IMG/VR virus record: IMGVR_UViG_3300020577_006105
From: a virus
Lineage: Duplodnaviria; Caudoviricetes
DNA length: 64,000 nt
Strand: one strand, 5' to 3'
Part shown: positions 22,601 to 64,000 of the stretch, piece after piece
Numbering within the stretch: position 1 is the first letter of the stretch
Layout of the letters: each line of letters opens with the position of its first letter
Translations under genes and position numbers: made by a program
The notes under the pieces: model-generated
What the model was told of the DNA's origin: nothing
What the model saw: the letters and a program-made list of their open reading frames with translations, nothing else
The model's database searches: none

Positions 22601-25600
22601 GTGGAATCCGGCAACGTAAATGTGAATTCAGCAGACCAGAAATTTGGATACAGTACATCAGACGCAACAATATCAACGTTAGCAGTATCTAGAAGTGTGA
22701 CTGGTGCGCCATTCACATCGGTTGACCATATTGTGAATCTCAGATAGTTGTCAAGCAATGCCGTAGGATTGTCGTGCGTCTCTGGGTACTCTACAGACAG
22801 ATAAGCGGCCACTCTGATTACATCTGTTTGACCAGTCACAGGCTTAAATGTTTGCGCTATGTACTGTCCGTCAAACTCCTCTGATATTGAAACTGTTGGC
22901 CTTGTTTGTAAACACGCATTTACATTGTTGGGGTCTGGTCGATGCCAGGTGTCTCCGTCGTCGTCTGAGTAGAAAATACCGCTTTCTGTGGCAGCAATCA
23001 GGCATTGTCCATCGAACACCAAATCATAAACCGCTATATTGTCGTTGTTTATCCTTTCGCATCTATCATATGTGGTACCATCGTTGTACGAGCGATATAC
23101 ACCATAATCTGTGCCCACAAAAATCTTACTGAGTGGTTCGACACCATCAGCACAAGCACGTGTTGTTAGTGCATAGCAGTTGCACGTAATTCCGGCTAGA
23201 TTATGGCTTTCGGCATGAAAGTCAAGACCGCCGGCATCAGATGGGTCGCACCATCGCCAGTTCCTAACCTTGTAAACACCATTGCTGGTCAAGATGTGAA
23301 TGGGTATTGGTTGTTTTGCAGTGCTTCCATCACATGTTGGCCTAGGCAATCCTCTGAAAATACGATAGATTTTCACAGGGACTTGAATCGTATTGCCATC
23401 TGCATTGGTGTACGAAACCTCGAGTGGGTTGTCACCAAACATTTCACGACCGGTCAAAAACGCAGAATAAGTTCCCGAAGTAGCACCGTTGGTTACACCA
23501 AACAAACCATTTTCTGTACACAAATATAGTGCGTCGATTTCTTGTTGTTCGCCATTATCCTTAATGCGTATGAACTTGTTTTTCCACAAACCATAAACCT
23601 TGGTTTCTGCGACTGGCATAAACGGGTCAGACGTAAACTCGCTATCGCCAACAGTCCACACAAACGCTAATCCATCGCTTTTGCCAAACGCCTCAAATGT
23701 ACCATCAAACCAATCTCCACTGTCGTGTGCAAATATGTTTTGTGGATACAATGGATTGGCAGTCCACTCTCCGCCTATTCTTTGCCACAGTCCATTATTG
23801 GCCCCAATTGTAAGCGTACTTTCTCGACTTTTGATGAAGTACACTCTATTAGATTCGTCAAGTGCCGATTCCTTCTTCCATCGGGAGTCTTCATAAATCC
23901 AAACACCCTTGTCGGTACCAATTCGCATGCCTTCGCCGGTTTGGTCGACGTCATATAATGCGTAAATGCTTCTAGGGTTGTATGGAACGTCAAGTTCTGA
24001 AGGTTCAAGTTTGGAGCACACATTGGACGATGAACCAAGCGGGTCAAACGAATCAACCAATGAATTAAAGAAAAATGCTCCCTTGGGTCCACGGTCAGCA
24101 CTAAACCCAGGCCCAGGTGACCGCGAAAAATTGGTGTAAAAGTTAGCGTCCTTTTCCTCGGCTGTCATTGACATCTGAATAGTGTTGACGCCAATCAGCG
24201 AGTTCATGTGATATGTCTGATTGGAAGTAGCTTGACTTATGACATCTTCAATGCCGAGCACATTTGTGATTTCAACCAAATACACTTCTGTGAAATCTGC
24301 CGGGAATGTATTGGTGCCCTGTCTGTCATGTGCGAGATAAACCCGATTGTTGTCAGGGTCTACAACAACACTAACGCGTTCTTGGAACGAACGATATCTA
24401 AGTTCTAACAGGACAGCAGATGTTGGAACTGTGGTGCGGTCTTTGAGGATGATTTCAGTGCCAGCCACTGCGTTTCCAACCAATTCGTAAGCCAGTTTTG
24501 TCAGTGCGGTCAATCCAGCCACTGTAGCATTGAATAATTCTTCGTGCGGTGTGCTTCCTACATTCGAAATATATGCGCCGGCACGAATGATGGTCACCTT
24601 CACAACATCCTCAGAGCTCAATGTTGACGAGAAGCTAATTCGACCCTCATCTGGATACAGCGTGTATGGAATTTCTGCTACGCTATCATTGATGTACACA
24701 ACCACATCTGCATTCAGTGGATTCCATGGGCTAACGTAGTACTCTGTGTACACGCGCTCATATACATATGAAGTCCATGGTGTTTGTGCATCTACAAATG
24801 TGACAGCTTGCGTGTCTGCATCAACGGTGTAGTCCAAATCTGACAATCGCTCAAGTGTTGCAGTGTCGTATATTGTAACCGTATCGTACTGTGTGAATTG
24901 TTGAGAATTTCTTTTCCAGGTCTCGCAACTATCTGTTGACCTCCAAATACCTCGAGTAGAACCAACATAAATGCTTCCATCCGATGTTGACCACGCATAT
25001 ATTGGAGAGTCTTGTTCGCTGTTAGACCATGTTTTTGAGGTTACAGTTGGTGTTTCTAGGACATTATCGTCATCATATGTCAAAACCATGCTTCGGCATC
25101 TGTTGCTGCCCAACTTGGCCAAAACAAAAAACTGATTGCTTGTGTCTGCTTGTAAAACTGCTGAAGTAAACAGTTCTCCAGCACCATAAGCTATTCTGTA
25201 CCACAAATTGTTGTATGTGATATTGGAGCCATCTACACTGCATAGCCACCCAGAGCCATTCAGACTACCACCACCGTCAACTTGCACTCGAACTGTACTA
25301 AGTTGCGAACCAGCAACAAGGTTCAGGTTGGCACCATCAAATTCATAAACACCGTTTTCAGAGGCGTCTGATTGGTTTTTCACCAGAACTCGGTCGCCAA
25401 TACCGAGTGTATATCCGTCTACCGATGCCACAGCCGGCAAAGTTATGGCGTCGATGGTTGCAACCTGCACCTCAAACAACACAGTGCCAACGTCTGCCAG
25501 AGGGTGAGTCCACATATCTCGACCGCTGCCGTCTGGATTGGTTTCAACAATGTGTTCTCCAGAATGCGAAATATAGGTCGCATCATCCGTCCACCAAATC

Positions 25601-32586: not shown

Positions 32587-35500
32587 TTATTCGGGGGCTT
32601 CCATGATATTCACTCTATCAGCGCAGACAACTAATGAATTTTGATATTGGCAGGCTGTCCTGACATTGACAAATCCATACACAACCTCATCCCTTGGCAT
32701 ATTCGGATTCTCGGTCTTCCAGTATTCTCCTACGCGATTGTATGAATAAGCATGCGCTGTTCTCGAGTCTGGATTGTCAAAAGCATTGTATTGAGGATAG
32801 CCCTGTGTAAATGCCCACAACGCACCCTGATATGTGGTCAATGTAGTTACTCCACCAGATGAAGGGAATCTCCACATCAAATCAAAGTCTTTGGTTTCAT
32901 ACAAAACAGGCGCCTGTGACTCGCCAATATAGAAGCGCATATGTGACCAACCAAATGTTGACTGTGCTTCTGTTGCCATGATTTTACCAAAGATGACTTC
33001 AGACTTCTCTGTTGGCCATCCAAGAAAATCGGTTTCATTGATAACCGGCGTGCTCTTTCTACCAACCCAAACTTTAACATCTCTGTCTGTCACACCAATT
33101 CGAATCGGTGTGAAGTTATCAGTGATGTTATTGCTACCAAGGTCAGTATTGCAGCTAATGTAGTCAATATCAAAGGTGTAATCACCTTCGTCATCTAGTG
33201 CAGGAATAGCTTCATCGGATTCGCGCAAAACACCGCGCAATTGCAATGCAATCGAGCGCATGGTGCCAACCCAAGGTGGCGAGAATTTGTACGTAACAAA
33301 GTGCGCGTCTGCGCTAACATCTACGCTTTCAGAAAAAACAAAGTCAGTTGGTGCAGGGTTACTTACCGGAGACCAAGCCATGTACAGCTTCGTGTCATTA
33401 GTGTTGAACCCGGATGCATTCAGTCGCATTCTAACATAGAAATACACAGAGTTGTCTACTTCTACACCGTCGTCATCTGCTTTCCAGTAGATGACTGGGT
33501 CACCATCAAGCAATGCGTGTACTCGCAAGGATTGAGTTTGGCGAGCGAAGGTCGCAGTATCTGACTCGTTTTCAACGAATATGTTACCCGCCGCATTGTT
33601 GGTAAACGGAATTACGAAATCACCAGCAAGCCAATCTTCGGTTTCACCAGCACCTTCTTCGCCAGTCCAGTATGGACCATAGTCATTGCCCTCAGTGGTG
33701 CCTGCAAAGTTCCACACCTTCTTATTACCTCGTTCTGGATATACAATTCCACCGGTGTGTGTTAGAATTGTGACGTCATCACTCCAGCCAGCGTAGTTCC
33801 TGACGACTGTGTTGCTACCACTCGTTAGGGTCATTTCGGTGTCGTCAAAATCAAGCCTAACTCGATATCTACCATCAGCAATCTCAATACTTTGTCTTCC
33901 GTCTCCTTGAATGTGCATAAGATTGAATTCCATCATCCAGTTTTCAGCATTACTACATGCCTGTTCCCAGTCCGAACCAGTGTCTGTTCTGAATATCACA
34001 CTTCGTTCTGCGGGGCCGTCAAGGGTAATGAGCTCTCTCATTCCAATTTCTTCATTGGGTTCAGTGATGGCGGCCCAAGTAATCAATGGGTCGTTCTCGG
34101 ATGACATTGTGATTCCGCCAGAAAGCTGGTTTACATCAGTTGCGAAAAATTGCCATGGTGCAGGGTTGTTGACAAACCATCTGTCAAAATATGTTGTTGA
34201 CCACAGTTCATCAGTAATTGGCTGGTCGACTTTCTTTTGAGAGTATGACCATATTTCTGGTTTGTTGCCAATACCAGCAACAACCTGCTCGTTTGCTGCC
34301 GCCAAACAAGTAACAGGCATGCTGTAAGATTCGTTCACGCCAATAAACTTCGACCGCAACTCGGTTTCTACCAATGCAGCCTCTGTGTCTCCTAGTTCTG
34401 CGTCGTATTCTCGAATGTATTGCAGTATCTTGTTTGAGTCTGTGCCGATAAACAGGCGATTGTATTCACCGACAGCGCAAGTCAAACTGCCTGGTTCGGT
34501 GCTTTCCAAAAATCCTGTACCTATTTGCTCGAGTCCACTAGTGGTTTCAAGTGTTTCTGCGGCAAATCTATACAATCTTGGTTTGATTGCTGTGCCGGCG
34601 TAAACATGCGAACTGCTTTCGTGCTGGAATTTGAATTTGACCAAGAATGTCACTGGTAATTCCACATCATCCTCGGACAGAGAGAACAGGCTTGGGACAA
34701 CTACTGTACCGTCAAATCCCCAGATATTTCCAGAGTATCCACCTAGTGCAATATAGTCAGAAAGTGGGAGAATACTCAGTACGCCCTTCTCGCCATATCC
34801 TCCGATGTCATAAGCAAGTTCTAGCCTAGCGCCGTCCCAGCGATACAATACACCTGTTTTTCGAGACACTGTTACGTTGAATGTTGGTGACTCTGGCAAT
34901 GCACCACAGAACACAATCAATCCACGCTCGTTGTCAATACGATATGAATTGGCAGGCGCACCGTAGCAAAGGTCATCGCCGCCAAATGGGACAAATCTTG
35001 TCCACTCTTCACTGTCCACGGTAATGGTGATGTCATCTATATCGCGAACATACACTACTCTACCAAGGTCGTTTTCGTTTGGAGATGTGACTAAGTACGC
35101 ATCTCCGCTAGAGTATTCTGGGTCAGTACTTACTGTTAGAGTGTAGTCTTCATATGTGATGAATTCAATTCCACCTAAGTACAACCATTCTTTATCACTG
35201 CCGGGCGGTGTCCAAGTACACGAACACGTAAATAGCCTTTTGCTACCGGATGTGTCAGAAATGATTTCCCACAACGGTTCTGGTTGATTTGCATTGTTGC
35301 CATAATCTCTGAACTGTGCCTCAATACGCTTGATGCCATCGGCCAGTAAATCGTCGTCTGGTACATTTACGCCAATATCATTTTTGATGTATTCAAGATA
35401 AGGTGCCCAATTAGACCAACTAGAGCCAACACCGGCTTGAGACATTCGAATTCGAACATCTTTGACATCCGTAATTCTATCATTCAAGTCTAGCTTGACC

Positions 35501-38500
35501 GTGCTGTCAGCTTCCTTAGTTGTAGACAGCGTAGCACCAGAATCAGGGTTGACAATCGCAAGCTCACCGGTTGGTGCAGTGGTGTCAACGAGCGCAAGGG
35601 ATTGAGCAGTCACAGTCAACGGCTCGCTTTCGCTGATATTTCCGGCAGTGTCCATGACCTGTGCCCAGATTCTTCTTGCGCCATCCATGGACTGGTTTTG
35701 TGACAACATTTCTGTGTCAAGTTCGCCTTGAGAGTCAAGCGGCCAGCGGCCGTGCAAATACACTGTGTAGTGTACTGTGGTTGCCTCTGGGGCAACTGTA
35801 AGCCATGTTTGGCTTGTTGTGCCCATTACATAATATGGAGGTGTTTCATTTGGTTCATCAAGGTGTAAATACCATGTGGTTCCGCCATATGTAGTCCCTT
35901 CTTCAACCGCAATCTTGATGTTTGGATGCAATTCGTCATCTTCATCAAAATCTGTCGCTCGAGACCACGCACCCGACAGATTAACAATGTATACACCGTT
36001 CGCCGCCGAACTTGATTGTGCCACCAACAAGATTCTTTCACCATCAGACCAGCTTGAATATCCGTCTATTGTTCCAGGCGAACCATTAAGCACGACCTGG
36101 TTTGATGTCTGAACAACCTTGACCGTACTGAGTGTTCGGTATGCTACAAAGTGATTCCAATTCTGCCAAGGGCCGTATTGAGCGATACCATTGTCGCCTT
36201 CTTTGATAATTCTGAACGCCATGATTCCAGAATCACTATCATTGGCGTCGATGGCCAACAGAGCACTGCGCACTGATGGCTCCTGCACTTCTGAAATCTT
36301 CGGCCGCGTGCTTGTGTAATATCCAGGCGCAACACGGTCTACCAGTACATAATCTGATAGTAACGATGCGTTACCACTTAATCGCGCATGTGAGTCAGCG
36401 GAAAGTCTGCACTGAATATATGCACCATTAAGTGCATTGTTGTATCGTTCTGAATGATACAAAAATAGCTTGTGATACACCCCAAAAGCGCGTGTGGCAC
36501 CAATCAACCCGCCCTCAGTGAACCGTTGTAGTTCGCCCATGCGTTTTGCGTTTCCGGTTGCAATCTCACACCCAGAAGGCAACATTACAGACATCCACAG
36601 TTGTCTGCCCTCCGTGGCGGTTACTTCTGAAGTACACAGGTCAAATTGAACTAGATAGTTTTTGGACATCGTGTATCCAATAGTTGTGTGGAAACCATTT
36701 GATGTACCGTTGGTATGCCATTGGCTTACTGGATTACCAACTTGCTCGTCCTCAACATATTCGTAAAATCTTACCTTTGGTGATGTTTTTGGCTTGAAGT
36801 TGTTTTCTGTAGGTCGGATTAGTACTTCTGCAAGTTTTAGGTAAACATCTTCTGAGTTAATCAATTTGTTTACGCCAGTAAGCGTTATCAACTGATTAAA
36901 CATCGCTGATTTCCATGTCAATGGAGTGATGTCTAAATTGAATGTTCCAACCCATTCATCAATATACCAAGCAGTACCCAAGCAACTACCAGAACTTGTG
37001 GTTAGCTCAGTTATGATATATGGTGTTTCATTGATAACAAGGTTGCCGTCAGTAGTGGCACAAAACACAGAACCTTCATATGTATTGCCATTCAATACGA
37101 TGATGATAGTTCCGCTTGGGAACTCTCCATACGTATCTGCATCAGTAGACCTAACCCATATACCATCGCTACCAGTGCCAACTACAGAAACAGTGTAAAG
37201 GCCATTTTTTACTTGCTCTGCAGGGTCGTCGCCTATGACTAAAATAACATCATTCACGCGCACAGGAAACCCATCAACAGAGCTAGGCATGTTTTGTAAC
37301 GTGCCTGTAAAGACATACTCTTCACCAGCCAAGAATTCATATGCCAATCTTGCGTATCGAGCGTCATCAACTTCAACCCTGTTTCCGTATTGAACATGTG
37401 CATTAGTAGACAAGTCGTATGAACGAGTCCATATTCCGTTTGAACCAGAACCTACTGAATTGACGACATAGATACCATTCTCTGATGGATTGGTTTGATT
37501 GACACACAATACGCGATGGTTCACCGACAGCGGTATGCCGTCTACTGTATCTGGTGCCGAACCAAATGAAATGTTTTCTTGGGCCACGCATTGAACATTG
37601 GTATATGTCTCAGGCGCCGCAGGAATTTTAATCCACATGTCAGACTCATCGGTAATTGATGAAACCATTCTTTGCCCAATAAGGTGCTTGTGATTGTGCT
37701 GTGCTGTTTTGCCCTTGGTAAATCTTCTGAAGTGCGGCGAAGGATTGCCGTCTAGCGGCTTAACAATTGGTTCTGGCATCATGCTGAATGCTTTAAGAAC
37801 CGCGTGTCCTTGTGCTAAGTTGTTGTCTTCAGACCAATCGCTAAAATCACCATTAAGTCCTCCTCGAACGCCTGCAGCAACGTACCATCCGGTTCCGTTG
37901 ATGTTTCCACTTAATGGTAAGTCTAGTTTGTGACTGCCCCAAAATTCTCCGTCTTTTCTGACAACAATCCAAGTTCCGTGTCCTCTTCCCTTTGGGGGAA
38001 CAGTAGATACCTGAATGTTCCACTCTGTAAACGTTTCTGCTCCAACATCTTCGGAATCAATCGGTGCATATCTTCTCATCTTACGCTTGGTAAGGGTTCC
38101 ATCAGAGTGCCTCTGTCTAATTTCAATAGAGCGGTCTCTTGTTTTGAAGCAAACCATGATGGCTTCTGGTGAAGATGTTTCAACATCTTCGTATTCACAC
38201 CTCAATCCGGTTGGTATGCCGTTTTGAGCATAGTCTTGACTAAGCGTAACATAGAAGTCTCCAGAGTAGTGCGCAAGTTCAAAGTCAATGAATGTTCTCA
38301 ATCCAAATGATGGTATATACGCCTGGACCTCTGAATATGATATGCTGGATTCTGACGACGGCGCTCTTAGATACAATCGGTCGTTGTCGGCTATGGCAGC
38401 GTCGCCATATGCAGTTTCTGTGTAAGTAAACACACCAAAGTCTGTATCTAAATTGTCAGCCCAAAGATGGTCTGAATCGTCAATTTGAACGTGCGGGAAC

Positions 38501-40029
38501 TCTACTACTCCGGTATGGTTGCATGTACAGTCACCATAGTCACCACCTATAACAAATCTGCCAGCCGCCATCGCAAGTTCGTGGAACCAAACCAAACAAT
38601 CAACATTAGACCCAGCACCAACAATTGCGCCAAGATACGAAAAATCATCTAATGATTGAACAATGGCGTCTGCTATGACATACGAATCACAAGGAGAAGT
38701 ATTTTCATATTGTGTGATTTCACATGGTGTGATATAGGCACGAATCAGTGCCAGTCCATCATTGCGGTCTGTGGCATACATCTCAAGCAATCCCCCAAGA
38801 CGAATCTGCTCTGTGGCTTGCTCAGGTAATGTAGTAGTCAGAATGACATTTGGTTCCTTAACACCGTCGTGTAGTCGGTATAGCTGTGCAGTAGCTGCAC
38901 CATAGGCAGGAACATCTACGCGTACAATATACGCATGACCAACATTGGGTAAGTCCCATGCATTGTTGCCAATACCAATGTAAAACGTTGTTTCTGCTGT
39001 TGGATTGTCTTCAATCTCAAATTGGATAGATGCGTTGATTGCTATGTCCGGTCGCTTGAGGTCCAGGTCGACTTCTTCAACAGTTATGGCTGCCATGTTG
39101 GCACCAGCCGCGAAAGCAACAGGTGTATGAGCAGGAATTAGACCAATTGCTGTTCCAAATGTTTCTCCGTTGAACATGTAACCATATTTATAAGTGTGTT
39201 GTGCTGGATAGTGTGGCAATATGAGTCGTCTTACGCCTGGGTTGTCAAATCCAGCCCTTGTGCTATAAAATGCGTTTTCAACACCATCAACAACTGGCCT
39301 AAGTTCAATGATATCAGTGACATACCGAGAAACACCTGTGTTGTATCGCCCCGACGCATGTTCTTCAGAGGCCCTGAATTCCCATGTAGTTTTCTTCCCT
39401 GTGTATTCATCTGACACATTGATTGCATATGGCTTTCCTGGGGCGCCTGGTCGCTCTGACTGCCAGAAAATCTGGTCATACAATCCGTAGTCATTTGGAT
39501 AAGTAATAACTTGCGAACTTCCAGTCGCAAGAACCTCGGCCTGAAGATAAACCGCACTTAAGCCACCGGTTGCAGAAAGTGGCCAGCCTTCAATGACAAA
39601 AAATCCAGTAAACCCAGTTGTGCCGGCTTCTGCACCGTCGTCGTCCCAGCCGGTTCTGTATTGGTCTACTGATTCTCCAGTGAAAAACAATGGGTTGAGC
39701 TTTCGTCTATAGTTGTTGCTCGTGCTAAAGGTGGCTGGCGAAGCAGGCCAGTTTTCCACAACCACAGTATTGCTCGCATGAAACTCAGGGTCGTTACTGA
39801 GTCTAAGTGAAATAATTCTTGATAGTGCGACCTCTTCTCTTGTTTCTGTGTCAACAAGTTTGAACCCAATGACAATATCGTGTTGATTGTACGATGTATC
39901 AGCATCGTACAACGAAGAATCCGCGCTAACCTTGTCTGTGGAGTACACTTCACCTCTTTCAACAAAATCACCGCGCAGATAACTGCTTCTCAGGTTATCG
40001 GGTAGTAAAACTTGGACTTCTATTGGCAT
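32587..40029 (-). CDS. giant (2480 aa) tail-fibre-like virion protein
   Basis: Three copies of a tail-fibre module (RVL/RIL..Q....NG[IV]Y.V....W.R[SA].D), Ig-like D-x-AGN modules and propeller repeats. Confidence 0.7.
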   Translation of the reverse strand: MPIEVQVLLPDNLRSSYLRGDFVERGEVYSTDKVSADSSLYDADTSYNQHDIVIGFKLVDTETREEVALSRIISLRLSNDPEFHASNTVVVENWPASPATFSTSNNYRRKLNPLFFTGESVDQYRTGWDDDGAEAGTTGFTGFFVIEGWPLSATGGLSAVYLQAEVLATGSSQVITYPNDYGLYDQIFWQSERPGAPGKPYAINVSDEYTGKKTTWEFRASEEHASGRYNTGVSRYVTDIIELRPVVDGVENAFYSTRAGFDNPGVRRLILPHYPAQHTYKYGYMFNGETFGTAIGLIPAHTPVAFAAGANMAAITVEEVDLDLKRPDIAINASIQFEIEDNPTAETTFYIGIGNNAWDLPNVGHAYIVRVDVPAYGAATAQLYRLHDGVKEPNVILTTTLPEQATEQIRLGGLLEMYATDRNDGLALIRAYITPCEITQYENTSPCDSYVIADAIVQSLDDFSYLGAIVGAGSNVDCLVWFHELAMAAGRFVIGGDYGDCTCNHTGVVEFPHVQIDDSDHLWADNLDTDFGVFTYTETAYGDAAIADNDRLYLRAPSSESSISYSEVQAYIPSFGLRTFIDFELAHYSGDFYVTLSQDYAQNGIPTGLRCEYEDVETSSPEAIMVCFKTRDRSIEIRQRHSDGTLTKRKMRRYAPIDSEDVGAETFTEWNIQVSTVPPKGRGHGTWIVVRKDGEFWGSHKLDLPLSGNINGTGWYVAAGVRGGLNGDFSDWSEDNNLAQGHAVLKAFSMMPEPIVKPLDGNPSPHFRRFTKGKTAQHNHKHLIGQRMVSSITDESDMWIKIPAAPETYTNVQCVAQENISFGSAPDTVDGIPLSVNHRVLCVNQTNPSENGIYVVNSVGSGSNGIWTRSYDLSTNAHVQYGNRVEVDDARYARLAYEFLAGEEYVFTGTLQNMPSSVDGFPVRVNDVILVIGDDPAEQVKNGLYTVSVVGTGSDGIWVRSTDADTYGEFPSGTIIIVLNGNTYEGSVFCATTDGNLVINETPYIITELTTSSGSCLGTAWYIDEWVGTFNLDITPLTWKSAMFNQLITLTGVNKLINSEDVYLKLAEVLIRPTENNFKPKTSPKVRFYEYVEDEQVGNPVSQWHTNGTSNGFHTTIGYTMSKNYLVQFDLCTSEVTATEGRQLWMSVMLPSGCEIATGNAKRMGELQRFTEGGLIGATRAFGVYHKLFLYHSERYNNALNGAYIQCRLSADSHARLSGNASLLSDYVLVDRVAPGYYTSTRPKISEVQEPSVRSALLAIDANDSDSGIMAFRIIKEGDNGIAQYGPWQNWNHFVAYRTLSTVKVVQTSNQVVLNGSPGTIDGYSSWSDGERILLVAQSSSAANGVYIVNLSGAWSRATDFDEDDELHPNIKIAVEEGTTYGGTTWYLHLDEPNETPPYYVMGTTSQTWLTVAPEATTVHYTVYLHGRWPLDSQGELDTEMLSQNQSMDGARRIWAQVMDTAGNISESEPLTVTAQSLALVDTTAPTGELAIVNPDSGATLSTTKEADSTVKLDLNDRITDVKDVRIRMSQAGVGSSWSNWAPYLEYIKNDIGVNVPDDDLLADGIKRIEAQFRDYGNNANQPEPLWEIISDTSGSKRLFTCSCTWTPPGSDKEWLYLGGIEFITYEDYTLTVSTDPEYSSGDAYLVTSPNENDLGRVVYVRDIDDITITVDSEEWTRFVPFGGDDLCYGAPANSYRIDNERGLIVFCGALPESPTFNVTVSRKTGVLYRWDGARLELAYDIGGYGEKGVLSILPLSDYIALGGYSGNIWGFDGTVVVPSLFSLSEDDVELPVTFLVKFKFQHESSSHVYAGTAIKPRLYRFAAETLETTSGLEQIGTGFLESTEPGSLTCAVGEYNRLFIGTDSNKILQYIREYDAELGDTEAALVETELRSKFIGVNESYSMPVTCLAAANEQVVAGIGNKPEIWSYSQKKVDQPITDELWSTTYFDRWFVNNPAPWQFFATDVNQLSGGITMSSENDPLITWAAITEPNEEIGMRELITLDGPAERSVIFRTDTGSDWEQACSNAENWMMEFNLMHIQGDGRQSIEIADGRYRVRLDFDDTEMTLTSGSNTVVRNYAGWSDDVTILTHTGGIVYPERGNKKVWNFAGTTEGNDYGPYWTGEEGAGETEDWLAGDFVIPFTNNAAGNIFVENESDTATFARQTQSLRVHALLDGDPVIYWKADDDGVEVDNSVYFYVRMRLNASGFNTNDTKLYMAWSPVSNPAPTDFVFSESVDVSADAHFVTYKFSPPWVGTMRSIALQLRGVLRESDEAIPALDDEGDYTFDIDYISCNTDLGSNNITDNFTPIRIGVTDRDVKVWVGRKSTPVINETDFLGWPTEKSEVIFGKIMATEAQSTFGWSHMRFYIGESQAPVLYETKDFDLMWRFPSSGGVTTLTTYQGALWAFTQGYPQYNAFDNPDSRTAHAYSYNRVGEYWKTENPNMPRDEVVYGFVNVRTACQYQNSLVVCADRVNIMEAPE

Positions 40030-48932: not shown

Positions 48933-51900
48933 TTAGTTGATTTCGGTAAGTTTGAATGCTTTTCCGACACTTCCACTCTGACTTAAGTGTCTGCATACTA
49001 GGTCTCCATTTGCGGCTACGTAGTATATTGCTGTTTGCCCGTAATACTGTACGGTCCTGAGTGAAACGATGCCCGCTCGTTGTTGCAGGACGTTATCTTC
49101 GTTATCCGCCCTGTTCACTATTAGGTAGCCAGCAGATTGCATTTGCGTGAATGTATTGTCAGCGGTGCTGCCAGATGTGAAATCACTACTGCCGGCGATG
49201 AGATGTATCGGTTTGAGAACTGTCTGACCAGAACTGTTTTGACGTGGAATTTGTGTAGCAAACAACCGGCCACTTGACCAAAACACCACTGTACCCTCGT
49301 CATAATGTTCGTTAAAAGTCGCCGCTGGAGACACCATTGGTGTCTCGGACGAGTTGGATATACCGCCCTGTCTAAAGCTACACACCACAAATGCTCGACC
49401 AAATCCAGTTTCATCCAAGGTTCTTCCTATCAATTCTCCATCTCTGCCAACAACTGAGTAAATGGCCGTTGGCCTATCCCTGCTATCGACAAACACAGCA
49501 GCGTAATCCTCACTCACTGTGCCACTAATACCGCCTTTGGGTGGTCGTGGTGTTTGCTCATATGGCATGCTTGATTCGGGCGAACCATCTATTAAGAACA
49601 CATCACCAATTCCTCCTGGCCCTTGTTGCTGTGATTGCGTTAGTGTGGCAGTACGTAAAACTAACCCGCCGCCATCTACCCATCCAACTACATAGCATTT
49701 ATCTCCATTGTGCGATGTAGCAGTAGAGTGCAGCTTCAAACCTGCGGCGATGTATCTTGGTTGATTCAGTGTGCTAGAATTGAGTGCAGCATTGGCAGTT
49801 CTGAATGTCCCTGCATGAGCGTGTTTAGTACTTGCTCCGACATTAACCGTTGCTATTTCAGAGTCGGCAAATTGAGTAGACACGCCAACAACTGAGCCGC
49901 TTTTATCGCCGCCCGACAGGCTTGTTCTAAACACACTCGCTTCTGTTCCTTTTAGTTTGTTGTCGTCTTTATCTTTCACAACATCAACATACTGTGGTTG
50001 GCTTCTTCCTGCTTGGTGTGTTAGGACTTCTACGCCGCGCTCATCTTCCTCTACTTCGCCACGCTCATTGAAAACCACGTGAACTCGTTCGCTTATTGGG
50101 TGACCAACGGCAGAAACAGACAGTCGTTGTGTGGTTGTGCCGTCTTCGCCAGGAACTGTACGCACCCATAACTGTCTCGAGAATATGCCTGAATTAAGGC
50201 TCGGGGCGCGAACAATCACCTCTACGTCTTTTGGCATGTTCAAATACCAAACAGGCGAGTACATAGTTCCTTGTATCCTAAATGTGTCTGGTCGAATAAT
50301 GACTTTGAATTTCAAGTTTTCTTCATCGGCAATATACCAAAACTCATTACCGCCAATACTCCTAGATGGAACCAGGTCTAGATTTTCATAAAACGCAGGG
50401 CTTCCGATGAAACTTGGGGTTTGATTGATTTGCAGTGTTTCCAGGGTGTGCTTCATAATCGCAGCACGCGTAATACGCATGCCAACAGGCTTGTCGCCCA
50501 TTAGTGCCTGGATGTCATCTATTTTGACCGGTGAGCCGTTAGCTGAATATGGATACGCATAAAAGCGCAATACCAATCGCGAGTCCGCCGATGACGTTAG
50601 CACAAATGGAACTGTGATTTCTGTTTCGTATTCATAGTTTGCTTGCCCCGTAACAAACGGCACAAGCGGTGAGCGGAAGATACGCTCTGTGATTCTTCCG
50701 CTAACATCAACCACAAATCCTTCGACGCGCATATCGAGCTTGATTGACTCATTGTCAATGCCTTCATCAACACTCCATTCAACCTTCCATGTACCTGCCT
50801 CGGTGCTCGCACCAGTGGCACGAACATTTGATATCCTTCCGCCTGCAATGTTTTCTGCACTTGCACAAAAATCGGCTTTGACTTGCCCTTCAGCAGTGTG
50901 TGTATTGGGTATGACGGTGTATGGTATACAAAAGCCCACGGAATCTTCTTCTCCGCCACGCAATGTGTAAAGATTGTAGTATGCCGTAGTGCTTGAACTA
51001 GGGTCATATGGGCGCACAGTGTCGTCATATACGATAAACTCATCATCATTCGCATCAGAACCATAAAATCGCGTTTCTCTTATGCTCAATGGTGAATATG
51101 GGTCTGCGACGCCGCCATATGGCTGATACCTACTTGAATTGTATCGCAACCATCTGATTGGAAAAAGTGCATGTGACTGTGACATCAAACATGTGCCTTC
51201 GGCATATCCATATGTTGGGTCAAACTCCACCTGAACTCTCGGGCATGTTTTTGCTGTTAGTGACGGTGTTGTTGTTGAGCCGTCTCCAGTTGGTTCTGAC
51301 AAAACATAGAGCCCTACCGCCAGCTTCCAATCACCACCTGGAATATCCAGTGTTGTTCCTCCGTCTTCTGCTTGTTCAATGTATCTAACCACTTCATACT
51401 CGCGAAGAGTACTGTCGAGCGGCGGCGTAATCATCACATGTCTCAAATTGGTTGGTTTTCCAATCTTCAGCGTGCTTTTTTCACTACCGTCAGTGCCCGT
51501 TACTGAATCAAAGTATATTTCTGTGGTGTCTCTGTATGCCGCAATTTCTTCAGGTGTTGCAGTGCTTGGTATATTGGCAGGAACCAGCCACCACCTGGCC
51601 ATAAGGTGCATATCTGCTGTAATTTGGTCATCCAGTGCCTGTGCTCTGATTTTGAATCTCCATGCGCCTGGGGCAATCTGTATTGGATTTGTGAACACCT
51701 TTTCGTCATCAACTACAAATGTTGCAACCGCCGGCGCACTAAATGGACCATTTGGCAGATTGCTAAGCATTTCAACCCTTCTGGTTGCGTATTCTCTTGG
51801 TTCGCTATTGCTGATTGACGGTTCAGTTAACGCCTGGAACGACGTTTTCTCCGACCATACTTGACTCCTAAATGGAGTACTAACAAACTCCACATCACTA

Positions 51901-53318
51901 AGCAAATGTTGCCTTACTCTAAACCAGTCTGTGGATTTTGCGACATTGTCGTTTTCTGTTTTATCCAAATATAGATATGGTGAAATCATTGGGCCACCGT
52001 CTGAGTATGTGTTGTTAGTGTCCAACACGTATGTGTACACAGTTGAGTACTGAGAGCTTGTGGTTGGCGGACTTGCGCTTACACTACCTGTGTATTTTTC
52101 AACCACGATTTCTATGCAATTATCACGCACTGGAAACAAATCTAGCGGTACTACGCGCCCTGCTGGTGTTAAATTAGTCCGGGCCATCAAAGAATAAAAC
52201 GCATTGCGCCGGCCGGGCCGAGGCCCAACGAACATGCAAAAGAACGCCGATGGGTTCGCCATATCCTCGAGAAGTCCAATCAAGGAAAAATCACCGGGTG
52301 CTATTCCGTATGCAGGAATGGCAAAAATCAAGAACTTTAGGTATACAGAATGGGCTAATCCAGTTTCTGCAACATTTTCGTCTGGGGCGAATATCTTACA
52401 ATGAAAGTTTGGTTCTGAAGAACTGTTTGGCCACAATGCAGTACCGCGAATGGGGTCAAATTCAAAGTCAACCAAATATGCATATTGCAATAGTGCTGTT
52501 GGGGTTTGCCCATAAGATATGTTAACTCGTTCTGCGTTGAATAGTTGAATTTTGTGAATTTCAATCCGCAAGGTTGGTATTGAATATCTGTTTGAGATTC
52601 GAATGCGTTTTTGTACCGAGTATGACTCTGGCATGTCTTCATCGCCGTCGCCGGTTTTGAACTTGATGTGCAGGATTCTGATTGGTTGAGACTTGCCTTG
52701 AAAGCCAGTGAGCATAAGCTCTGATGGAACATCGTTGACTGGCTTTGGAAACTCATCTCCGTCTCCATCAACATCCAACGAAGCACGCACCATACCCCAT
52801 GGGTACTTCGGAAATTCGATGTCTGGATATGGATTGTTCTCTGGGTCTGCCCTATATGCCTGCACCAATTCCAGGTCTGATTCGTCCAAATACAGGTCAA
52901 TTGACTCATCTAGAATATCTACTGTTAGGCGATATTCAATGGTCATACCAGAGACCCTGTCAACATTATTTGGTAGTTGTACTGCCCACGAAAGCTCTTC
53001 TCCGTGCGCAATAAACGGCTCAGTCGGAATGGTGCCGGTGTATCCATAAGGGTCTTCAACATACCTATATGCCCTTGTAATTGGGTACATTTCAGAACCT
53101 TCTGCGCTCTCCACCTCACCTCCGGGTTCCTCTATAACAGCATTTCCGCTGTTGCCAATAACTGGCGCATCATTCCTGAATTCTCCGCGTTCTAATACCA
53201 GGTTTCGGTATGATGGCCCAGGCACAGAACCACCAAGGCCCTCTCTTGGAGTTGGGACCCAGTTAAAATTGCCGACATACGGCTTGTTGTCTGGATTTTG
53301 ATACGGGTCGTATGGCAT
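48933..53318 (-). CDS. large (1461 aa) hypothetical virion protein
   Basis: Long ORF co-oriented with and abutting structural genes; beta-rich. Confidence 0.65.
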   Translation of the reverse strand: MPYDPYQNPDNKPYVGNFNWVPTPREGLGGSVPGPSYRNLVLERGEFRNDAPVIGNSGNAVIEEPGGEVESAEGSEMYPITRAYRYVEDPYGYTGTIPTEPFIAHGEELSWAVQLPNNVDRVSGMTIEYRLTVDILDESIDLYLDESDLELVQAYRADPENNPYPDIEFPKYPWGMVRASLDVDGDGDEFPKPVNDVPSELMLTGFQGKSQPIRILHIKFKTGDGDEDMPESYSVQKRIRISNRYSIPTLRIEIHKIQLFNAERVNISYGQTPTALLQYAYLVDFEFDPIRGTALWPNSSSEPNFHCKIFAPDENVAETGLAHSVYLKFLIFAIPAYGIAPGDFSLIGLLEDMANPSAFFCMFVGPRPGRRNAFYSLMARTNLTPAGRVVPLDLFPVRDNCIEIVVEKYTGSVSASPPTTSSQYSTVYTYVLDTNNTYSDGGPMISPYLYLDKTENDNVAKSTDWFRVRQHLLSDVEFVSTPFRSQVWSEKTSFQALTEPSISNSEPREYATRRVEMLSNLPNGPFSAPAVATFVVDDEKVFTNPIQIAPGAWRFKIRAQALDDQITADMHLMARWWLVPANIPSTATPEEIAAYRDTTEIYFDSVTGTDGSEKSTLKIGKPTNLRHVMITPPLDSTLREYEVVRYIEQAEDGGTTLDIPGGDWKLAVGLYVLSEPTGDGSTTTPSLTAKTCPRVQVEFDPTYGYAEGTCLMSQSHALFPIRWLRYNSSRYQPYGGVADPYSPLSIRETRFYGSDANDDEFIVYDDTVRPYDPSSSTTAYYNLYTLRGGEEDSVGFCIPYTVIPNTHTAEGQVKADFCASAENIAGGRISNVRATGASTEAGTWKVEWSVDEGIDNESIKLDMRVEGFVVDVSGRITERIFRSPLVPFVTGQANYEYETEITVPFVLTSSADSRLVLRFYAYPYSANGSPVKIDDIQALMGDKPVGMRITRAAIMKHTLETLQINQTPSFIGSPAFYENLDLVPSRSIGGNEFWYIADEENLKFKVIIRPDTFRIQGTMYSPVWYLNMPKDVEVIVRAPSLNSGIFSRQLWVRTVPGEDGTTTQRLSVSAVGHPISERVHVVFNERGEVEEDERGVEVLTHQAGRSQPQYVDVVKDKDDNKLKGTEASVFRTSLSGGDKSGSVVGVSTQFADSEIATVNVGASTKHAHAGTFRTANAALNSSTLNQPRYIAAGLKLHSTATSHNGDKCYVVGWVDGGGLVLRTATLTQSQQQGPGGIGDVFLIDGSPESSMPYEQTPRPPKGGISGTVSEDYAAVFVDSRDRPTAIYSVVGRDGELIGRTLDETGFGRAFVVCSFRQGGISNSSETPMVSPAATFNEHYDEGTVVFWSSGRLFATQIPRQNSSGQTVLKPIHLIAGSSDFTSGSTADNTFTQMQSAGYLIVNRADNEDNVLQQRAGIVSLRTVQYYGQTAIYYVAANGDLVCRHLSQSGSVGKAFKLTEIN

Positions 53319-62363: not shown

Positions 62364-62695
62364 AAGACGAATCTCAAGCAATAGAAAATCTGGGGGATTT
62401 CCTCAAGCGGCTAGATTGGCAGGACTACGAATTTGTCCAGCAGCCAGAGCTACCGCATGGCGTGTCACCGCAAGCTAAAATCACCCCTGAAAATCAAGCT
62501 AAGCTGGAAGCCTATCGGTTACAGCGCGTAAAATGGCGCCAGTGTATGGAATCAATCACACCTGGCACGGTGCTGTTTTTGAAGACAGGCAAGTTCATAC
62601 TGGTTGGTCACGTGAACGAGAGTCTTACGTCTAAAGAGAACTACGAACCAGATTTTGAATACGAAGACATCTGTAAGATAGCCAAGTTGTGGTAA
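62360..62695 (+). CDS. hypothetical protein
   Basis: 111-aa ORF overlapping the previous stop codon. Confidence 0.6.
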   Translation: MKDESQAIENLGDFLKRLDWQDYEFVQQPELPHGVSPQAKITPENQAKLEAYRLQRVKWRQCMESITPGTVLFLKTGKFILVGHVNESLTSKENYEPDFEYEDICKIAKLW

Positions 62696-62704
62696 ACTGC
62701 ATGC

Positions 62705-63181
62705 ATGGAAATTCTGCAAAGACCAACGCACCAAGAGGTTTGCGACCTGGTTCAAGCCATTACTGGTTCATTTGAATCTATCTCGTGCGACCTCGATGCA
62801 AGTTTTGCCAACAAAATCACTGGCAAGACGAATTCAAGATTTGAGTCGCCTGTCATAATGGCGCTCCGTGTGTATCAAGATATTGTGGATGCATATTTCT
62901 GGTCTCATATGCTGGATTGCTCTGGTTGCGGTCGTGAAAATCGTGACCACGGAAATTTTTGGGGGCAATACTATGTATACTCCGAGATGGGTTGCACAAA
63001 GAAAAAGATTGACTCAGAATGGCCAGAAGGAACTCAAGATAAAGCGAAAGAGTTTCTAGACCACAGGAAGGATTACGAAGCCATTTTTCCACACATCTGC
63101 GAACTGTATGCATCTGGAATGTCATACGAAGAGGCCAGGGAAAGCGCAGAAAAAGCAGCCAAGACCCAAGTTAAGACGTGA
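62705..63181 (+). CDS. hypothetical protein with CxxC
   Basis: 158-aa ORF containing DCSGCG. Confidence 0.6.
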   Translation: MEILQRPTHQEVCDLVQAITGSFESISCDLDASFANKITGKTNSRFESPVIMALRVYQDIVDAYFWSHMLDCSGCGRENRDHGNFWGQYYVYSEMGCTKKKIDSEWPEGTQDKAKEFLDHRKDYEAIFPHICELYASGMSYEEARESAEKAAKTQVKT

Positions 63182-63227
63182 TTTTCGGGTTCAAACACGA
63201 CTTTTTTCGGATTTTTCTCGGAACCTC

Positions 63228-63256
63228 TTGACAAAAAACGAAGTCTGTTGTATAAT
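63228..63256 (+). promoter_or_regulatory. consensus sigma70 promoter
   Basis: TTGACA (63228-63233), 17 nt, TATAAT (63251-63256); T-tracts upstream resemble an UP element. Confidence 0.9.
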
Positions 63257-63295
63257 ATGAAGGTGAGCGATGAAAACATCGCGAAAGGAATGAAC

Positions 63296-63409
63296 ATGCG
63301 ATTTAGCTTGAATAACCATAATGGAAGCACACGGTTGGCCTATCAGGCCAATACCGCCGTGCATAATTATCCCAATATGGTTCGGGCTAACTGGGGGTAC
63401 CAGGCTTAA
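63296..63409 (+). CDS. putative attenuator leader peptide MRFSLNNHNGSTRLAYQANTAVHNYPNMVRANWGYQA
   Basis: AAAGGA Shine-Dalgarno (63284-63289) 6 nt before the ATG; 7 Asn, 2 His and 3 Tyr in 37 codons; its 3' end overlaps the antiterminator strand. Confidence 0.65.
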   Translation: MRFSLNNHNGSTRLAYQANTAVHNYPNMVRANWGYQA

Positions 63410-63442
63410 TCGTAAGATTGACCAATCCCCAAGAAAGCCCGG
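63382..63442 (+). promoter_or_regulatory. predicted antiterminator hairpin
   Basis: TCGGGCT (63382-88) pairs with AGCCCGG (63436-42) and TGGGGG (63392-97) with TCCCCA (63426-31), enclosing a TAATC-GTAA-GATTG hairpin. This sequesters the 5' arm of the terminator. Confidence 0.6.
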
Positions 63443-63468
63443 CTCACAAGGTCGGGCTTTCTTTTTTT
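63431..63468 (+). terminator. intrinsic terminator (attenuator)
   Basis: AAGAAAGCCCGGCT-CACAA-GGTCGGGCTTTCTT stem followed by a T-run to 63468. Confidence 0.9.
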
Positions 63469-63490
63469 AGATTTGACGAGGAAAAGGACA

Positions 63491-63514
63491 ATGGAGGACA
63501 ACGACAATAATTAG
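63491..63514 (+). other. mini-ORF MEDNDNN*
   Basis: GAGGA (63478-82) 8 nt upstream; codons ATG GAG GAC AAC GAC AAT AAT TAG. Confidence 0.35.
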
Positions 63515-63561
63515 CGCGAAGGCGTGCCACTTGATGTGACGCGCTGGAGCGCGAACATCAA

Positions 63562-63637
63562 GGCTCGTGAGCAAGCTGGTAGTTGCAGACGTCTGTTAAA
63601 CGGAAAGGGCTGGGGTCAGAACCCAGGCGGGCCTCCA
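63562..63637 (+). tRNA. non-canonical tRNA (anticodon GTT, Asn) with encoded CCA
   Basis: 76-nt cloverleaf: acceptor GGCTCGT/GCGGGCC + T + CCA; D stem GCAA/TTGC; anticodon loop CTGTTAA (GTT at 63595-97); T stem CTGGG/CCCAG. Atypical G8, T-loop GTCAGAA and two mismatches in the anticodon stem. Confidence 0.75.
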
Positions 63638-63690
63638 AAATTTCGAACTCATACAGAGGTATGGTTAACTTTTTTGGTTAACAAACACTT

Positions 63691-64000
63691 ATGAGTGCAA
63701 GTAAAACACACAAGGTTGTGTCATGGAGAAGAAGGGTAAAAAGATTGCTGATTGAGTACAAAGGTGGAAAATGTATCCAATGTGGTTACGAAGAAGATTG
63801 TCCGCCAGCATATGCATTTCATCATCGAGACCCGAATCAAAAAGACTTGACCATTAGTGGAAAATCATGGTCTTATGAAAGACTTAAAGCAGAAGCAGAT
63901 AAATGTGACTTGTTGTGTGTAAGATGTCATACAGAACTACATTACAAATGGCAAGCAACAAAAGACGACAACAAATGGGAGAAGCACAAGAAAAAGTCAC
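63691..64000 (+). CDS. HNH endonuclease (3'-truncated by the window edge), type common in phage tRNA regions
   Basis: Translated by hand: MSASKTHKVVSWRRRVKRLLIEYKGGKCIQCGYEEDCPPAYAFHHRDPNQKD...DKCDLLCVRCHTELH; absent from the ORF track because it has no stop in the window. Confidence 0.85.
   Translation, partial: MSASKTHKVVSWRRRVKRLLIEYKGGKCIQCGYEEDCPPAYAFHHRDPNQKDLTISGKSWSYERLKAEADKCDLLCVRCHTELHYKWQATKDDNKWEKHKKKS

Follow-up and report, generated by a model that had tools for sequence, protein, structure and literature searches.

A conserved, tRNA-Asn-derived tRNA(GUU) gene with a rewritten core in large phages, possibly a spare tRNA that evades tRNA-directed defences

Near the end of a 64,000-nucleotide stretch of viral DNA (Duplodnaviria; Caudoviricetes; IMG/VR record IMGVR_UViG_3300020577_006105), which we call the window throughout, lies a 76-nt sequence that can be drawn as a complete tRNA cloverleaf with the asparagine anticodon GUU but that lacks several bases expected of a tRNA-Asn. 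Is this sequence, referred to here as the tRNA(GUU) gene, a gene or the remains of one, and, if it is a gene, what might a phage use it for? The comparisons described below leave little doubt that it is a real, conserved, tRNA-Asn-derived gene that standard tools have overlooked. As to its use, the best explanation, to which we give a probability of about 0.45, is that it encodes a functional spare tRNA-Asn that would evade host tRNA-directed toxins or defences. A preliminary description of the locus had listed a nuclease-resistant tRNA and a decoy among several possibilities; the former is the reading that the sequence comparisons favor, and the latter is still a live rival.

Read from 5' to 3', the gene (GGCUCGU-GA-GCAA-GCUGGUAG-UUGC-A-GACGU-CUGUUAA-ACGGA-AAGGG-CUGGG-GUCAGAA-CCCAG-GCGGGCC-U-CCA) has the cloverleaf of an elongator tRNA, with 21 pairs (a 7-bp acceptor stem, a 4-bp D stem, and 5-bp anticodon and T stems) and standard spacing. 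It keeps what an AAY-reading elongator needs, namely the 7/4/5/5 cloverleaf, G18-G19 opposite U55-C56, the anticodon loop C32-U33-GUU-A37-A38, and a CCA end specified by the gene; position 26 is A, and the variable loop is 5 nt long (AAGGG). In the core, G18-G19 and U55-C56 are accompanied by G at positions 8, 14, 54, and 58 in place of U8, A14, U54, and A58, and three tertiary pairs are, by sequence, swapped on both partners (U8.A14 to G8.G14, G15.C48 to C15.G48, and U54.A58 to G54.G58), a pattern that fits a maintained L-shape with rewritten tertiary contacts. Of the features that identify tRNA-Asn, the GUU anticodon is present in all four copies of the gene described below, G73 is replaced by U73 in all four, and U1-A72 is likewise replaced by G1-C72 throughout. 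U39 of the canonical tRNA has become A or G, and in the window copy G27.A43 and A28.G42 at the top of the anticodon stem are unpaired, leaving three Watson-Crick pairs. The features listed in the preliminary description (76-nt spacing, CCA, G8, the T loop GUCAGAA, the tandem G.A/A.G mismatch, U73, and the acceptor pairs G1-C72/G2-C71/C3-G70) are all present on direct reading.

The preliminary description had also warned that standard tRNA scanners might miss such a gene, and they did. ARAGORN called no tRNA anywhere in the 64-kb window, Rfam gave no match at its gathering threshold for the window and no tRNA match even at E ≤ 10 on positions 63300 to 64000 (a 701-nt slice), and RF00005 failed to match at E ≤ 0.01 even the better-paired copy of the sister phage (see below). 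Annotation based on ARAGORN or Rfam would miss genes of this kind and undercount phage tRNA repertoires. The minimum-energy fold of the single sequence was no more stable than the folds of shuffled sequences (z = −0.42). A single-sequence test would thus not tell the gene from chance, and the evidence that takes it beyond chance is comparative.

We scanned IMG/VR and metagenome contigs with a degenerate pattern (D-loop GGUAG, 10 nt, CUGUUAA, 14 to 16 nt, GUCAGAA) and retrieved three further distinct copies: L007, in a phage (G001, the sister phage) whose genome of 478,840 bp is complete and has terminal repeats; L008, in a 177,708-bp contig and also seen as L026; and L012, in an AT-rich contig of 1,402 bp. 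An alignment of the four copies needs no gaps and has a mean identity of 95% (range, 92 to 97%), and their similarity is bounded exactly by G1 and A76, the flanks of L008 and L012 being unrelated to those in the window. G8, A9, the D loop, the anticodon loop, the T loop, U73, and CCA are kept in all four. When the alignment is folded on the cloverleaf, 92.9% of cells are paired, versus 26 to 46% when the partners are slid by one to three columns. Two-sided compensatory changes occur at three pairs in three helices (3:70, C-G to G-C; 31:39, U-A to C-G; and 51:63, G-C to U-A), and three more pairs have changed on one side and still pair. Of the 14 positions that vary, 10 belong to pairs for which each copy retains Watson-Crick or wobble pairing, and the remaining 4 (26, 27, 28, and 43) are found at the top of the anticodon stem. 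Position 44 is the sole loop position to vary, and single-stranded positions are otherwise invariant apart from 26 and the top of the anticodon stem. The tandem purine-purine mismatch at 27:43/28:42 that had been noted in the window copy is real there and recurs in three of the four copies, but it is not universal: L007 instead has G27.U43 and C28-G42.

This pattern is not that of a pseudogene, since the loops are invariant, the changes in the stems are compensatory, and phages that differ in base composition and have unrelated flanks keep the block. The argument of the preliminary description against simple decay is thereby strengthened, the homologue search having shown that relatives keep the deviations; these are not peculiar to the window copy, the outcome that it had itself named as telling against it. 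Nor does the constraint act on a protein. A single open frame crosses the element (a 56-aa open reading frame [ORF] at 63524-63694); it has no Pfam or PHROG match, and its 4 synonymous versus 10 nonsynonymous codon differences among the copies imply, together with the lack of a family match, that what is constrained is the RNA. The comparative pattern indicates that the tRNA(GUU) gene is under purifying selection and is a diverged tRNA-Asn paralogue of large phages.

Other scans recovered few copies, and thus the family is rare in the collections searched. blastn against GenBank phages gave no match for positions 62500 to 64000 or for the element alone, an exact 52-nt scan of IMG/VR found nothing, and a scan with the neighbouring 158-aa protein found no relatives. 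A D-arm pattern returned L007 and L008 only, together with three chance matches in coding DNA, and a looser anticodon-loop/T-loop/UCCA scan of IMG/VR returned the same two copies only. A T-arm/3'-end pattern gave two chance matches and no cellular copy in the genome collection, and one metagenome match (L010) was also due to chance. A covariance model of the family (R1), run over 86 loci, added no members, the next best hit being the tRNA-Asn of locus L009 with 59 bits versus more than 100 bits for members. L009 also contains, at 7648-7720 between two tRNA-Leu genes, a weak match to the family model (17.5 bits) without an ARAGORN call, which may be another unconventional tRNA.

What kind of tRNA did the gene come from? 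With the anticodon loop removed, its body was compared with those of about 600 distinct phage tRNAs. tRNA-Asn genes were the nearest, filling the first 2 places and 7 of the first 12, with Cys and Gly at background, and the family covariance model ranks Asn tRNAs directly after the members. The nearest relative, the tRNA-Asn of L009, is called by ARAGORN and is the sole Asn tRNA of its 19-tRNA array; its 5' acceptor strand (GGCUCGU) and T loop (GUCAGAA) are identical to those of the tRNA(GUU) gene, and it has U8, A14, a fully paired anticodon stem, and G73. The presence of this loop in an otherwise canonical tRNA-Asn implies that G54..G58 is compatible with an ordinary-looking tRNA and with tRNA function. 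Moreover, GUC(A/G)G loops occur in four ARAGORN-called phage tRNAs (Asn in L009, Thr, Asp, and Ser), so that the "rewritten" T loop of the preliminary description is less of a peculiarity than was supposed. The tRNA-Asn of E. coli (asnT/U/V/W) shares with the phage gene the loop CUGUUAA, the class I 76-nt form, the 5-nt variable loop, G18-G19/U55-C56, CCA, and the body; unlike it, the phage gene has G1-C72, U73, G8, G14, C15:G48, G54..G58, A or G at position 39, and, in three of the four copies, mismatches at 27:43 and 28:42. As separate observations on T loops, those swapped at 54/58 to A54..U58 (AUCGU) are common in phage tRNAs of at least 10 specificities (loci L020-L099), and UGCAA.. loops recur as well.

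U73 is a more serious departure. G73 is an identity element for AsnRS, is universal in cellular tRNA-Asn, and is preserved in each of the inferred ancestors (bacterial, archaeal, and universal; PMC9976931, PMC13433404), which bears out the earlier remark that U73 is a non-Asn discriminator; the same retention of G73 disposes of the idea that U73 marks an archaeal-type tRNA-Asn. The combination of U73 with G1-C72 is present in 7 to 10 of 52 distinct phage GUU tRNAs (about 15% of those sampled), and five U73 GUU tRNAs lie directly 5' of a G73 GUU tRNA, the order found in the window island. IMG/VR holds about 13 more U73-CCA GUU tRNAs, some of which (L107 and L113) are the sole Asn tRNA in arrays of 11 to 20 tRNAs. 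We considered U4.G69 as a common mark of U73 GUU tRNAs; it held in a first sample and failed in a second. The resemblance to tRNA-Cys seen in the preliminary description holds for G1, G2, C3, and U73 and goes no further: tRNA-Cys is identified by U73 plus a GCA anticodon (and, in E. coli, G15:G48), the phage gene has GUU and C:G at 15:48, and its Asn-type body resembles the 23 phage tRNA-Cys genes used for comparison no more than background. In addition, AAY codons are used at invariant Asn residues in the GyrB-like protein of this phage, the GHKL catalytic Asn among them. From this alignment, in which AAY codons are ordinary Asn codons, we rejected sense-codon reassignment, and it makes mischarging on a meaningful scale, another of the suggestions made earlier, unlikely.

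Phage GUU tRNAs are varied in other ways. In the L008 contig the odd tRNA stands between two more GUU tRNAs (8254-8329 and 8443-8518), one with U1-A72/G73, no G18-G19, and the T loop UUUGAAU, and the other with U73, G14, and a D arm resembling the odd family's. Many phage GUU tRNAs (loci L020-L099) are 82 to 91 nt long with a long variable arm, that is, of class II shape. These class II tRNA-Asn species are, like the tRNA(GUU) gene, noncanonical GUU tRNAs, and they are present in the HNH-linked loci examined; they have a normal core, however, whereas the tRNA(GUU) family is class I with a rewritten core and U73.

The surroundings of the gene bear on its use. The phage to which the window belongs is large and novel, was detected in riverine and wastewater samples, and encodes subunits of a type II topoisomerase as well as ORFs as long as 2,696 aa; context beyond the end of the window, which was out of sight for the preliminary description and proves the most important, was read from L001, a contig of the same phage. 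There the tRNA(GUU) gene is followed in order by an HNH homing-endonuclease cassette, a canonical tRNA-Asn (L001 10220-10293; U1-A72, G73), tRNA-His, two tRNA-Tyr genes, an endonuclease VII-like ORF, a YrlA-type Y RNA, Ro60, two ORFs (the first with a weak subthreshold match to glycosyltransferase family 8 and the second without a family match), and an Rnl1-like RNA ligase. From the sequence of its parts, this set of Asn, His, and Tyr tRNAs with Y RNA, Ro60, and ligase has the look of a tRNA damage-response island. In the sister phage G001 the order is unchanged except that the two endonuclease genes are missing (tRNA[GUU], a 3-nt spacer, tRNA-Asn, tRNA-His, tRNA-Tyr, Y RNA, and Ro60), and the main tRNA bank of this phage (205-218 kb) has no Asn, His, or Tyr tRNA among 29 that were sampled. 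Of G001, G002, and G003, only the first yielded a TROVE match, but the other two are about half complete, so that its absence from them carries no weight.

Comparison with G001 also shows where the GUU tRNAs have been changing. The two phages are about 96% identical around the tRNA(GUU) gene, and the two copies of the gene differ at positions 26, 28, and 43 only (binomial P = 0.006 versus a 3.2% background). The canonical tRNA-Asn genes (L001 10220-10293 versus L100 3433-3506, minus strand) differ at 10 of the 12 positions 26-31/39-44, with pairing kept, and at one D-loop base; the anticodon-stem cluster has a binomial P of 7 × 10^−14 versus the same background. tRNA-His and tRNA-Tyr are identical in the two phages. 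A paired CNG motif (28-30/40-42) is carried by both GUU tRNAs of G001 and has been lost from both GUU tRNAs of the window phage, in which the tRNA(GUU) gene has additionally lost two base pairs relative to the G001 copy.

The positions concerned are ones that nucleases are known to read. Phage tRNAs have recently been recognised as a counter-defence against bacterial tRNA-cutting immunity: those known to evade defences include T5's tRNAs for Lys(UUU), Thr(UGU), and Asn(GUU) acting against PARIS AriB, a tRNA-Thr acting against P2-OLD, and T5 and SP15 tRNA-Tyr acting against retron-Eco7 (PMC12409363, PMC12445682, PMC11555353, PMC10264068). The site at which PARIS AriB cuts tRNA-Asn(GUU), 40|41, adjoins U36-A-A-U39, and T5 variants carrying U39A are resistant (PMC12409363). 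In the phage tRNA-Thr, resistance to P2-OLD comes from changes in CNG together with U43A, which shortens the stem, and E. coli tRNA-Asn(GUU) was tested beside tRNA-Thr(UGU) in the kinetics of P2-OLD cleavage (PMC12445682). CdiA-CT(EC869) cuts tRNA-Asn at 71|72, and its action on tRNA-Gln variants requires G73 and the weak pair U1-A72, either U73 or G1-C72 making cleavage inefficient (PMC9071432). The tRNA(GUU) gene has the anticodon of a host target and substitutions at these determinants (A39 or G39, loss of the paired CNG, A43, U73, and G1-C72), a match made by sequence only and against determinants taken from E. coli systems. By analogy, the loss of CNG and the shortening of the stem by A43 in the window copy mirror the P2-OLD-resistant phage tRNA-Thr.

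The resemblance to defence-evading phage tRNAs extends to other features: the tRNA(GUU) gene is phage encoded, has the anticodon of a known host nuclease target, lies in a tRNA-rich region with homing endonucleases, and is substituted at the nuclease-read positions 39, 28-30/40-42, and 43. Unlike it, the known evading tRNAs keep a canonical tertiary core and synthetase identity elements, are called by scanners, and differ from their host counterparts by few anticodon-arm bases. Among all of these, the tRNA(GUU) family alone rewrites 8:14, 15:48, and 54:58 and has U73, and its likeness to the others is one read from sequence. It is the depth of change that sets the family apart, with three tertiary pairs swapped on both partners and the discriminator altered while the fold and anticodon loop are kept.

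Combined with the layout of the island, these comparisons suggest how a spare tRNA-Asn might serve the phage. A host defence or toxin that destroys or blocks cellular tRNA-Asn would cause ribosomes to stall on the Asn/His/Tyr-rich leader upstream of the gene (Table 1), and the stalling would let transcription pass the terminator. The tRNA(GUU) would be the first product, a spare tRNA-Asn not recognised by the attacking enzyme, and the canonical tRNA-Asn, tRNA-His, tRNA-Tyr, Y RNA with Ro60, and Rnl1-like ligase would then replace and repair the rest. Transcription and processing of the tRNA(GUU), its charging by AsnRS despite U73, its use by the ribosome, and its resistance to nucleases are what we infer under this model. 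If it is charged and does decode, it would show how much rewriting of the core can be tolerated, and that U73 is tolerated for Asn. On this reading the gene marks the entry to a compact island seemingly built for sensing damage to Asn, His, and Tyr tRNAs and for replacing and repairing them, a concrete system in which to study how giant phages survive tRNA-directed immunity.

Several considerations weigh against a defence-evading spare tRNA-Asn. Charging of a U73 tRNA may be poor, G73 being the established AsnRS identity element (PMC9976931, PMC13433404), and G1-C72 is an antideterminant for bacterial GatCAB (PMC9976931), so that the tRNA(GUU) would not be amidated in a host using the indirect route to Asn-tRNA. 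Two adjacent non-Watson-Crick pairs in the anticodon stem, together with G8 and G14, are unusual for a translating tRNA. A canonical tRNA-Asn adjoins the gene in every genome in which the context is known, and thus the tRNA(GUU) is not needed simply for decoding Asn codons. The covariation rests on few events, the four copies being 92 to 97% alike, and the anticodon-stem differences could represent immunity, at the DNA level, to the adjacent HNH endonuclease or co-conversion during homing. Finally, the only RNA-library contigs that reach the locus (from four wastewater metatranscriptome runs of one study) match the window to 63562 and then continue with ACAGGGTGGCCGAGTGGACGATGGCAATTG..., the 5' half of a different, class II-like tRNA that replaces the tRNA(GUU) in the wastewater strain; with a different tRNA in the slot, they are evidence neither for transcription of the element nor for its absence. 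Because these contigs switch at tRNA position 1, the slot appears to be exchangeable at tRNA boundaries, with different tRNA genes in different strains. A scan of IMG/VR for the replacement sequence returned nothing.

Which other readings could account for the same facts? Under one, which we consider on balance unlikely, the RNA is an uncharged tRNA mimic (a decoy, inhibitor, or sensor) kept from AsnRS, EF-Tu, and the ribosome by U73 and G1-C72, its Asn-type anticodon loop and L-shape serving to titrate or inhibit a host factor that attacks tRNA-Asn, or to act as a ligand for the island's Ro60 or Rnl1-like ligase. Such an RNA would be a new kind of tRNA mimic. U73 and G1-C72 do differ from the G73 read by AsnRS and the U1-A72 read by bacterial GatCAB (PMC9976931), the common core modification sites U8, U54, and A58 are removed, the canonical tRNA-Asn that is always adjacent where the context is known already covers decoding, and Ro60 lies on the same strand 2.5 kb downstream (about 1.1 kb in G001), near a tRNA-mimicking Y RNA. 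A decoy should, however, retain the motif of its attacker, and the window copy has lost the paired CNG and two stem pairs present in the sister copy; the bona fide tRNA-Asn changes in parallel, a pattern that fits escape better than bait; and stoichiometric decoys are weak against catalytic nucleases. Other U73 GUU tRNAs, moreover, appear as the sole Asn tRNA of large arrays, and the same T loop is found in the only Asn tRNA of one array. As for Ro60, the gene recalls YrlA-type Y RNAs (PMC4201824) in specifying a tRNA-shaped RNA within 4 kb of a same-strand Ro60, with a true YrlA-like RNA in the same island. In YrlA, though, the order is circularly permuted (T arm, capped acceptor hairpin, D arm), and a Ro60-binding stem with GNCGAA closes the RNA, whereas the tRNA(GUU) runs 5' to 3' as an ordinary cloverleaf, possesses an anticodon arm and a free CCA end, and has neither that stem nor the YrlA architecture. 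We rejected its assignment as a Y RNA: RF02553 does not match the element, which has no GNCGAA motif, and the YrlA match lies elsewhere (Table 1). Similarly doubtful, and rated a shade lower, is the broader proposal that GUU/U73 RNAs form a distinct functional class, either a rewired-core mimic kept out of aminoacylation (the bait, inhibitor, or sensor arm of an integrated phage response to tRNA damage, also comprising a leader that senses stalling, tRNAs for replacement, Y RNA with Ro60, and the ligase) or a new identity set read by another enzyme.

A quite improbable reading, in our judgment, places the function mainly at the DNA level, the gene serving the adjacent HNH endonuclease as its homing site or as an immunity allele and its RNA being a tolerated, hitch-hiking tRNA paralogue; the odd bases, especially 28 and 43, would block self-cutting by HNH or would have been co-converted during homing. 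The cassette does sit exactly between A76 of the tRNA(GUU) and U1 of the canonical tRNA-Asn, where G001 has 3 nt, and 27:43/28:42 are mismatched in the three HNH-bearing copies and paired in the HNH-free L007. In L012 a related HNH gene comes after the element, and in L026 one is found a tRNA further along; the HNH family (315 relatives in IMG/VR) very often has tRNA-Asn(GUU) genes as neighbours, in some cases on either side (L030 and L098); and the break at position 1 in the wastewater strain resembles a cassette-like exchange. G8, the T loop, U73, and CCA are not a consequence of HNH, however, since the HNH-free sister phage has them too; the RNA is 92 to 97% conserved whereas the associated HNH proteins are 38 to 53% identical; the substitutions are compensatory at the RNA level; and homing immunity would cover at most positions 26-28 and 43. 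It is very unlikely that the tRNA has instead acquired an altered identity, being charged with another amino acid by an enzyme that reads U73 and G1-G2-C3 so as to misread AAY codons deliberately. U73 with G1-C72, G2-C71, and C3-G70 matches the acceptor elements of tRNA-Cys, U73 is found in Cys and Gly tRNAs (PMC13433404), and the U73 GUU class recurs beside G73 GUU tRNAs. CysRS, GlyRS, and ThrRS, on the other hand, depend on anticodon bases absent from the tRNA(GUU) (PMC9976931, PMC13433404), C15:G48 differs from the G15:G48 of E. coli tRNA-Cys, the body is Asn-like and not Cys- or Gly-like, and appreciable misreading would harm the phage, given the AAY codons at invariant Asn positions of its GyrB-like protein. 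If anything, still less credence is due to a purely cis-acting signal, in which the gene would be tRNA-shaped punctuation that recruits RNase P and 3' processing to free the downstream RNAs from the leader and would have no role in trans. The gene is the first structured element after the leader and a mini-ORF, a hairpin abuts its 5' end, and in G001 tRNA genes follow directly. Against this, L008 and L012, with unrelated leaders and neighbours, keep the anticodon loop, variable loop, U73, and CCA, which punctuation would not need, and ordinary tRNAs of the same array already offer processing sites. The remaining probability we leave to something not considered here.

Table 1. Positions of the tRNA(GUU) gene, its parts, and neighbouring features, in window numbering unless L001 is named
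Feature	Position	Strand	Remarks
Noncanonical tRNA(GUU) gene	63562..63637	+	76-nt cloverleaf; tRNA position n = window 63561+n
Acceptor stem	63562-63568/63627-63633	+	GGCUCGU/GCGGGCC, 7 pairs; U4.G69 and U7.G66 wobble
G8	63569	+	Next base A9
D arm	63571-63586	+	Stem GCAA/UUGC, loop GCUGGUAG
Anticodon arm	63588-63604	+	Stem GACGU/ACGGA, loop CUGUUAA
Anticodon GUU	63595-63597	+	
T arm	63610-63626	+	Stem CUGGG/CCCAG; T loop GUCAGAA at 63615-63621
U73	63634	+	
Encoded CCA	63635-63637	+	
Putative promoter	63228..63256	+	Sigma-70-type consensus, TTGACA, 17 nt, TATAAT; 12/12 matches; would start transcript into island
Leader ORF MRFSLNNHNGSTRLAYQANTAVHNYPNMVRANWGYQA	63296..63409	+	37 codons: 7 Asn, 2 His, 3 Tyr
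Intrinsic-terminator-like hairpin	63431..63468	+	14 pairs, then T run; between leader ORF and tRNA(GUU); weak terminator-type Rfam matches
Mini-ORF MEDNDNN*	63491..63514	+	Behind purine-rich Shine-Dalgarno-like run
Leader hairpin	63531..63561	+	UUGAUGU/ACAUCAA enclosing CGCGC-UGGA-GCGCG; abuts tRNA position 1; common to G001 only, not L008/L012
HNH homing-endonuclease cassette	63638 to about 64241 (L001 9616-10219)	+	604 bp; ORF from 63691, 182 aa, ends at window-equivalent 64239
YrlA-type Y RNA match	L001 11935-12045	Same as tRNAs	41.2 bits, E = 5e-7, below gathering score
Ro60	L001 12137-13759	Same as tRNAs	TROVE and vWA_Ro60 domains
Rnl1-like RNA ligase	L001 16620-17876	Same as tRNAs	phrog_562, E = 6e-32

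The region upstream of the gene contains the elements that the proposed induction by stalled ribosomes would use (Table 1). From its codon content, the leader ORF is possibly a translation-sensing leader. Three mini-ORFs have the header AAAG(G)ACAATGGA in common: the one in the window, one at about L001 10310, before tRNA-His, and one at about 10860, before tRNA-Tyr. Their codons (NDNN, HHH, and DYNY, respectively) correspond to the tRNA that follows each. The repeated AAAGACAATGGA motif may be a promoter element or may represent the Shine-Dalgarno site and ATG of the mini-ORFs, and the translations fit the latter; the AAAG(G)ACAATGGA header could alternatively be read as a promoter element.

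Two further stretches of the island drew no ARAGORN or Rfam call. One, at L001 10340-10440, is a structured stretch about 100 nt long that precedes tRNA-His and is shared with the sister phage; the other, a 295-nt stretch at L001 10555-10849, ends in a T arm and CCA (about 10770-10840) and is absent from the sister phage. Elsewhere in the window, the minus strand carries ORFs of 2,696, 2,480, and 1,461 aa (19678-27768, 32587-40029, and 48933-53318, respectively), along with several of more than 1,000 aa in a row.

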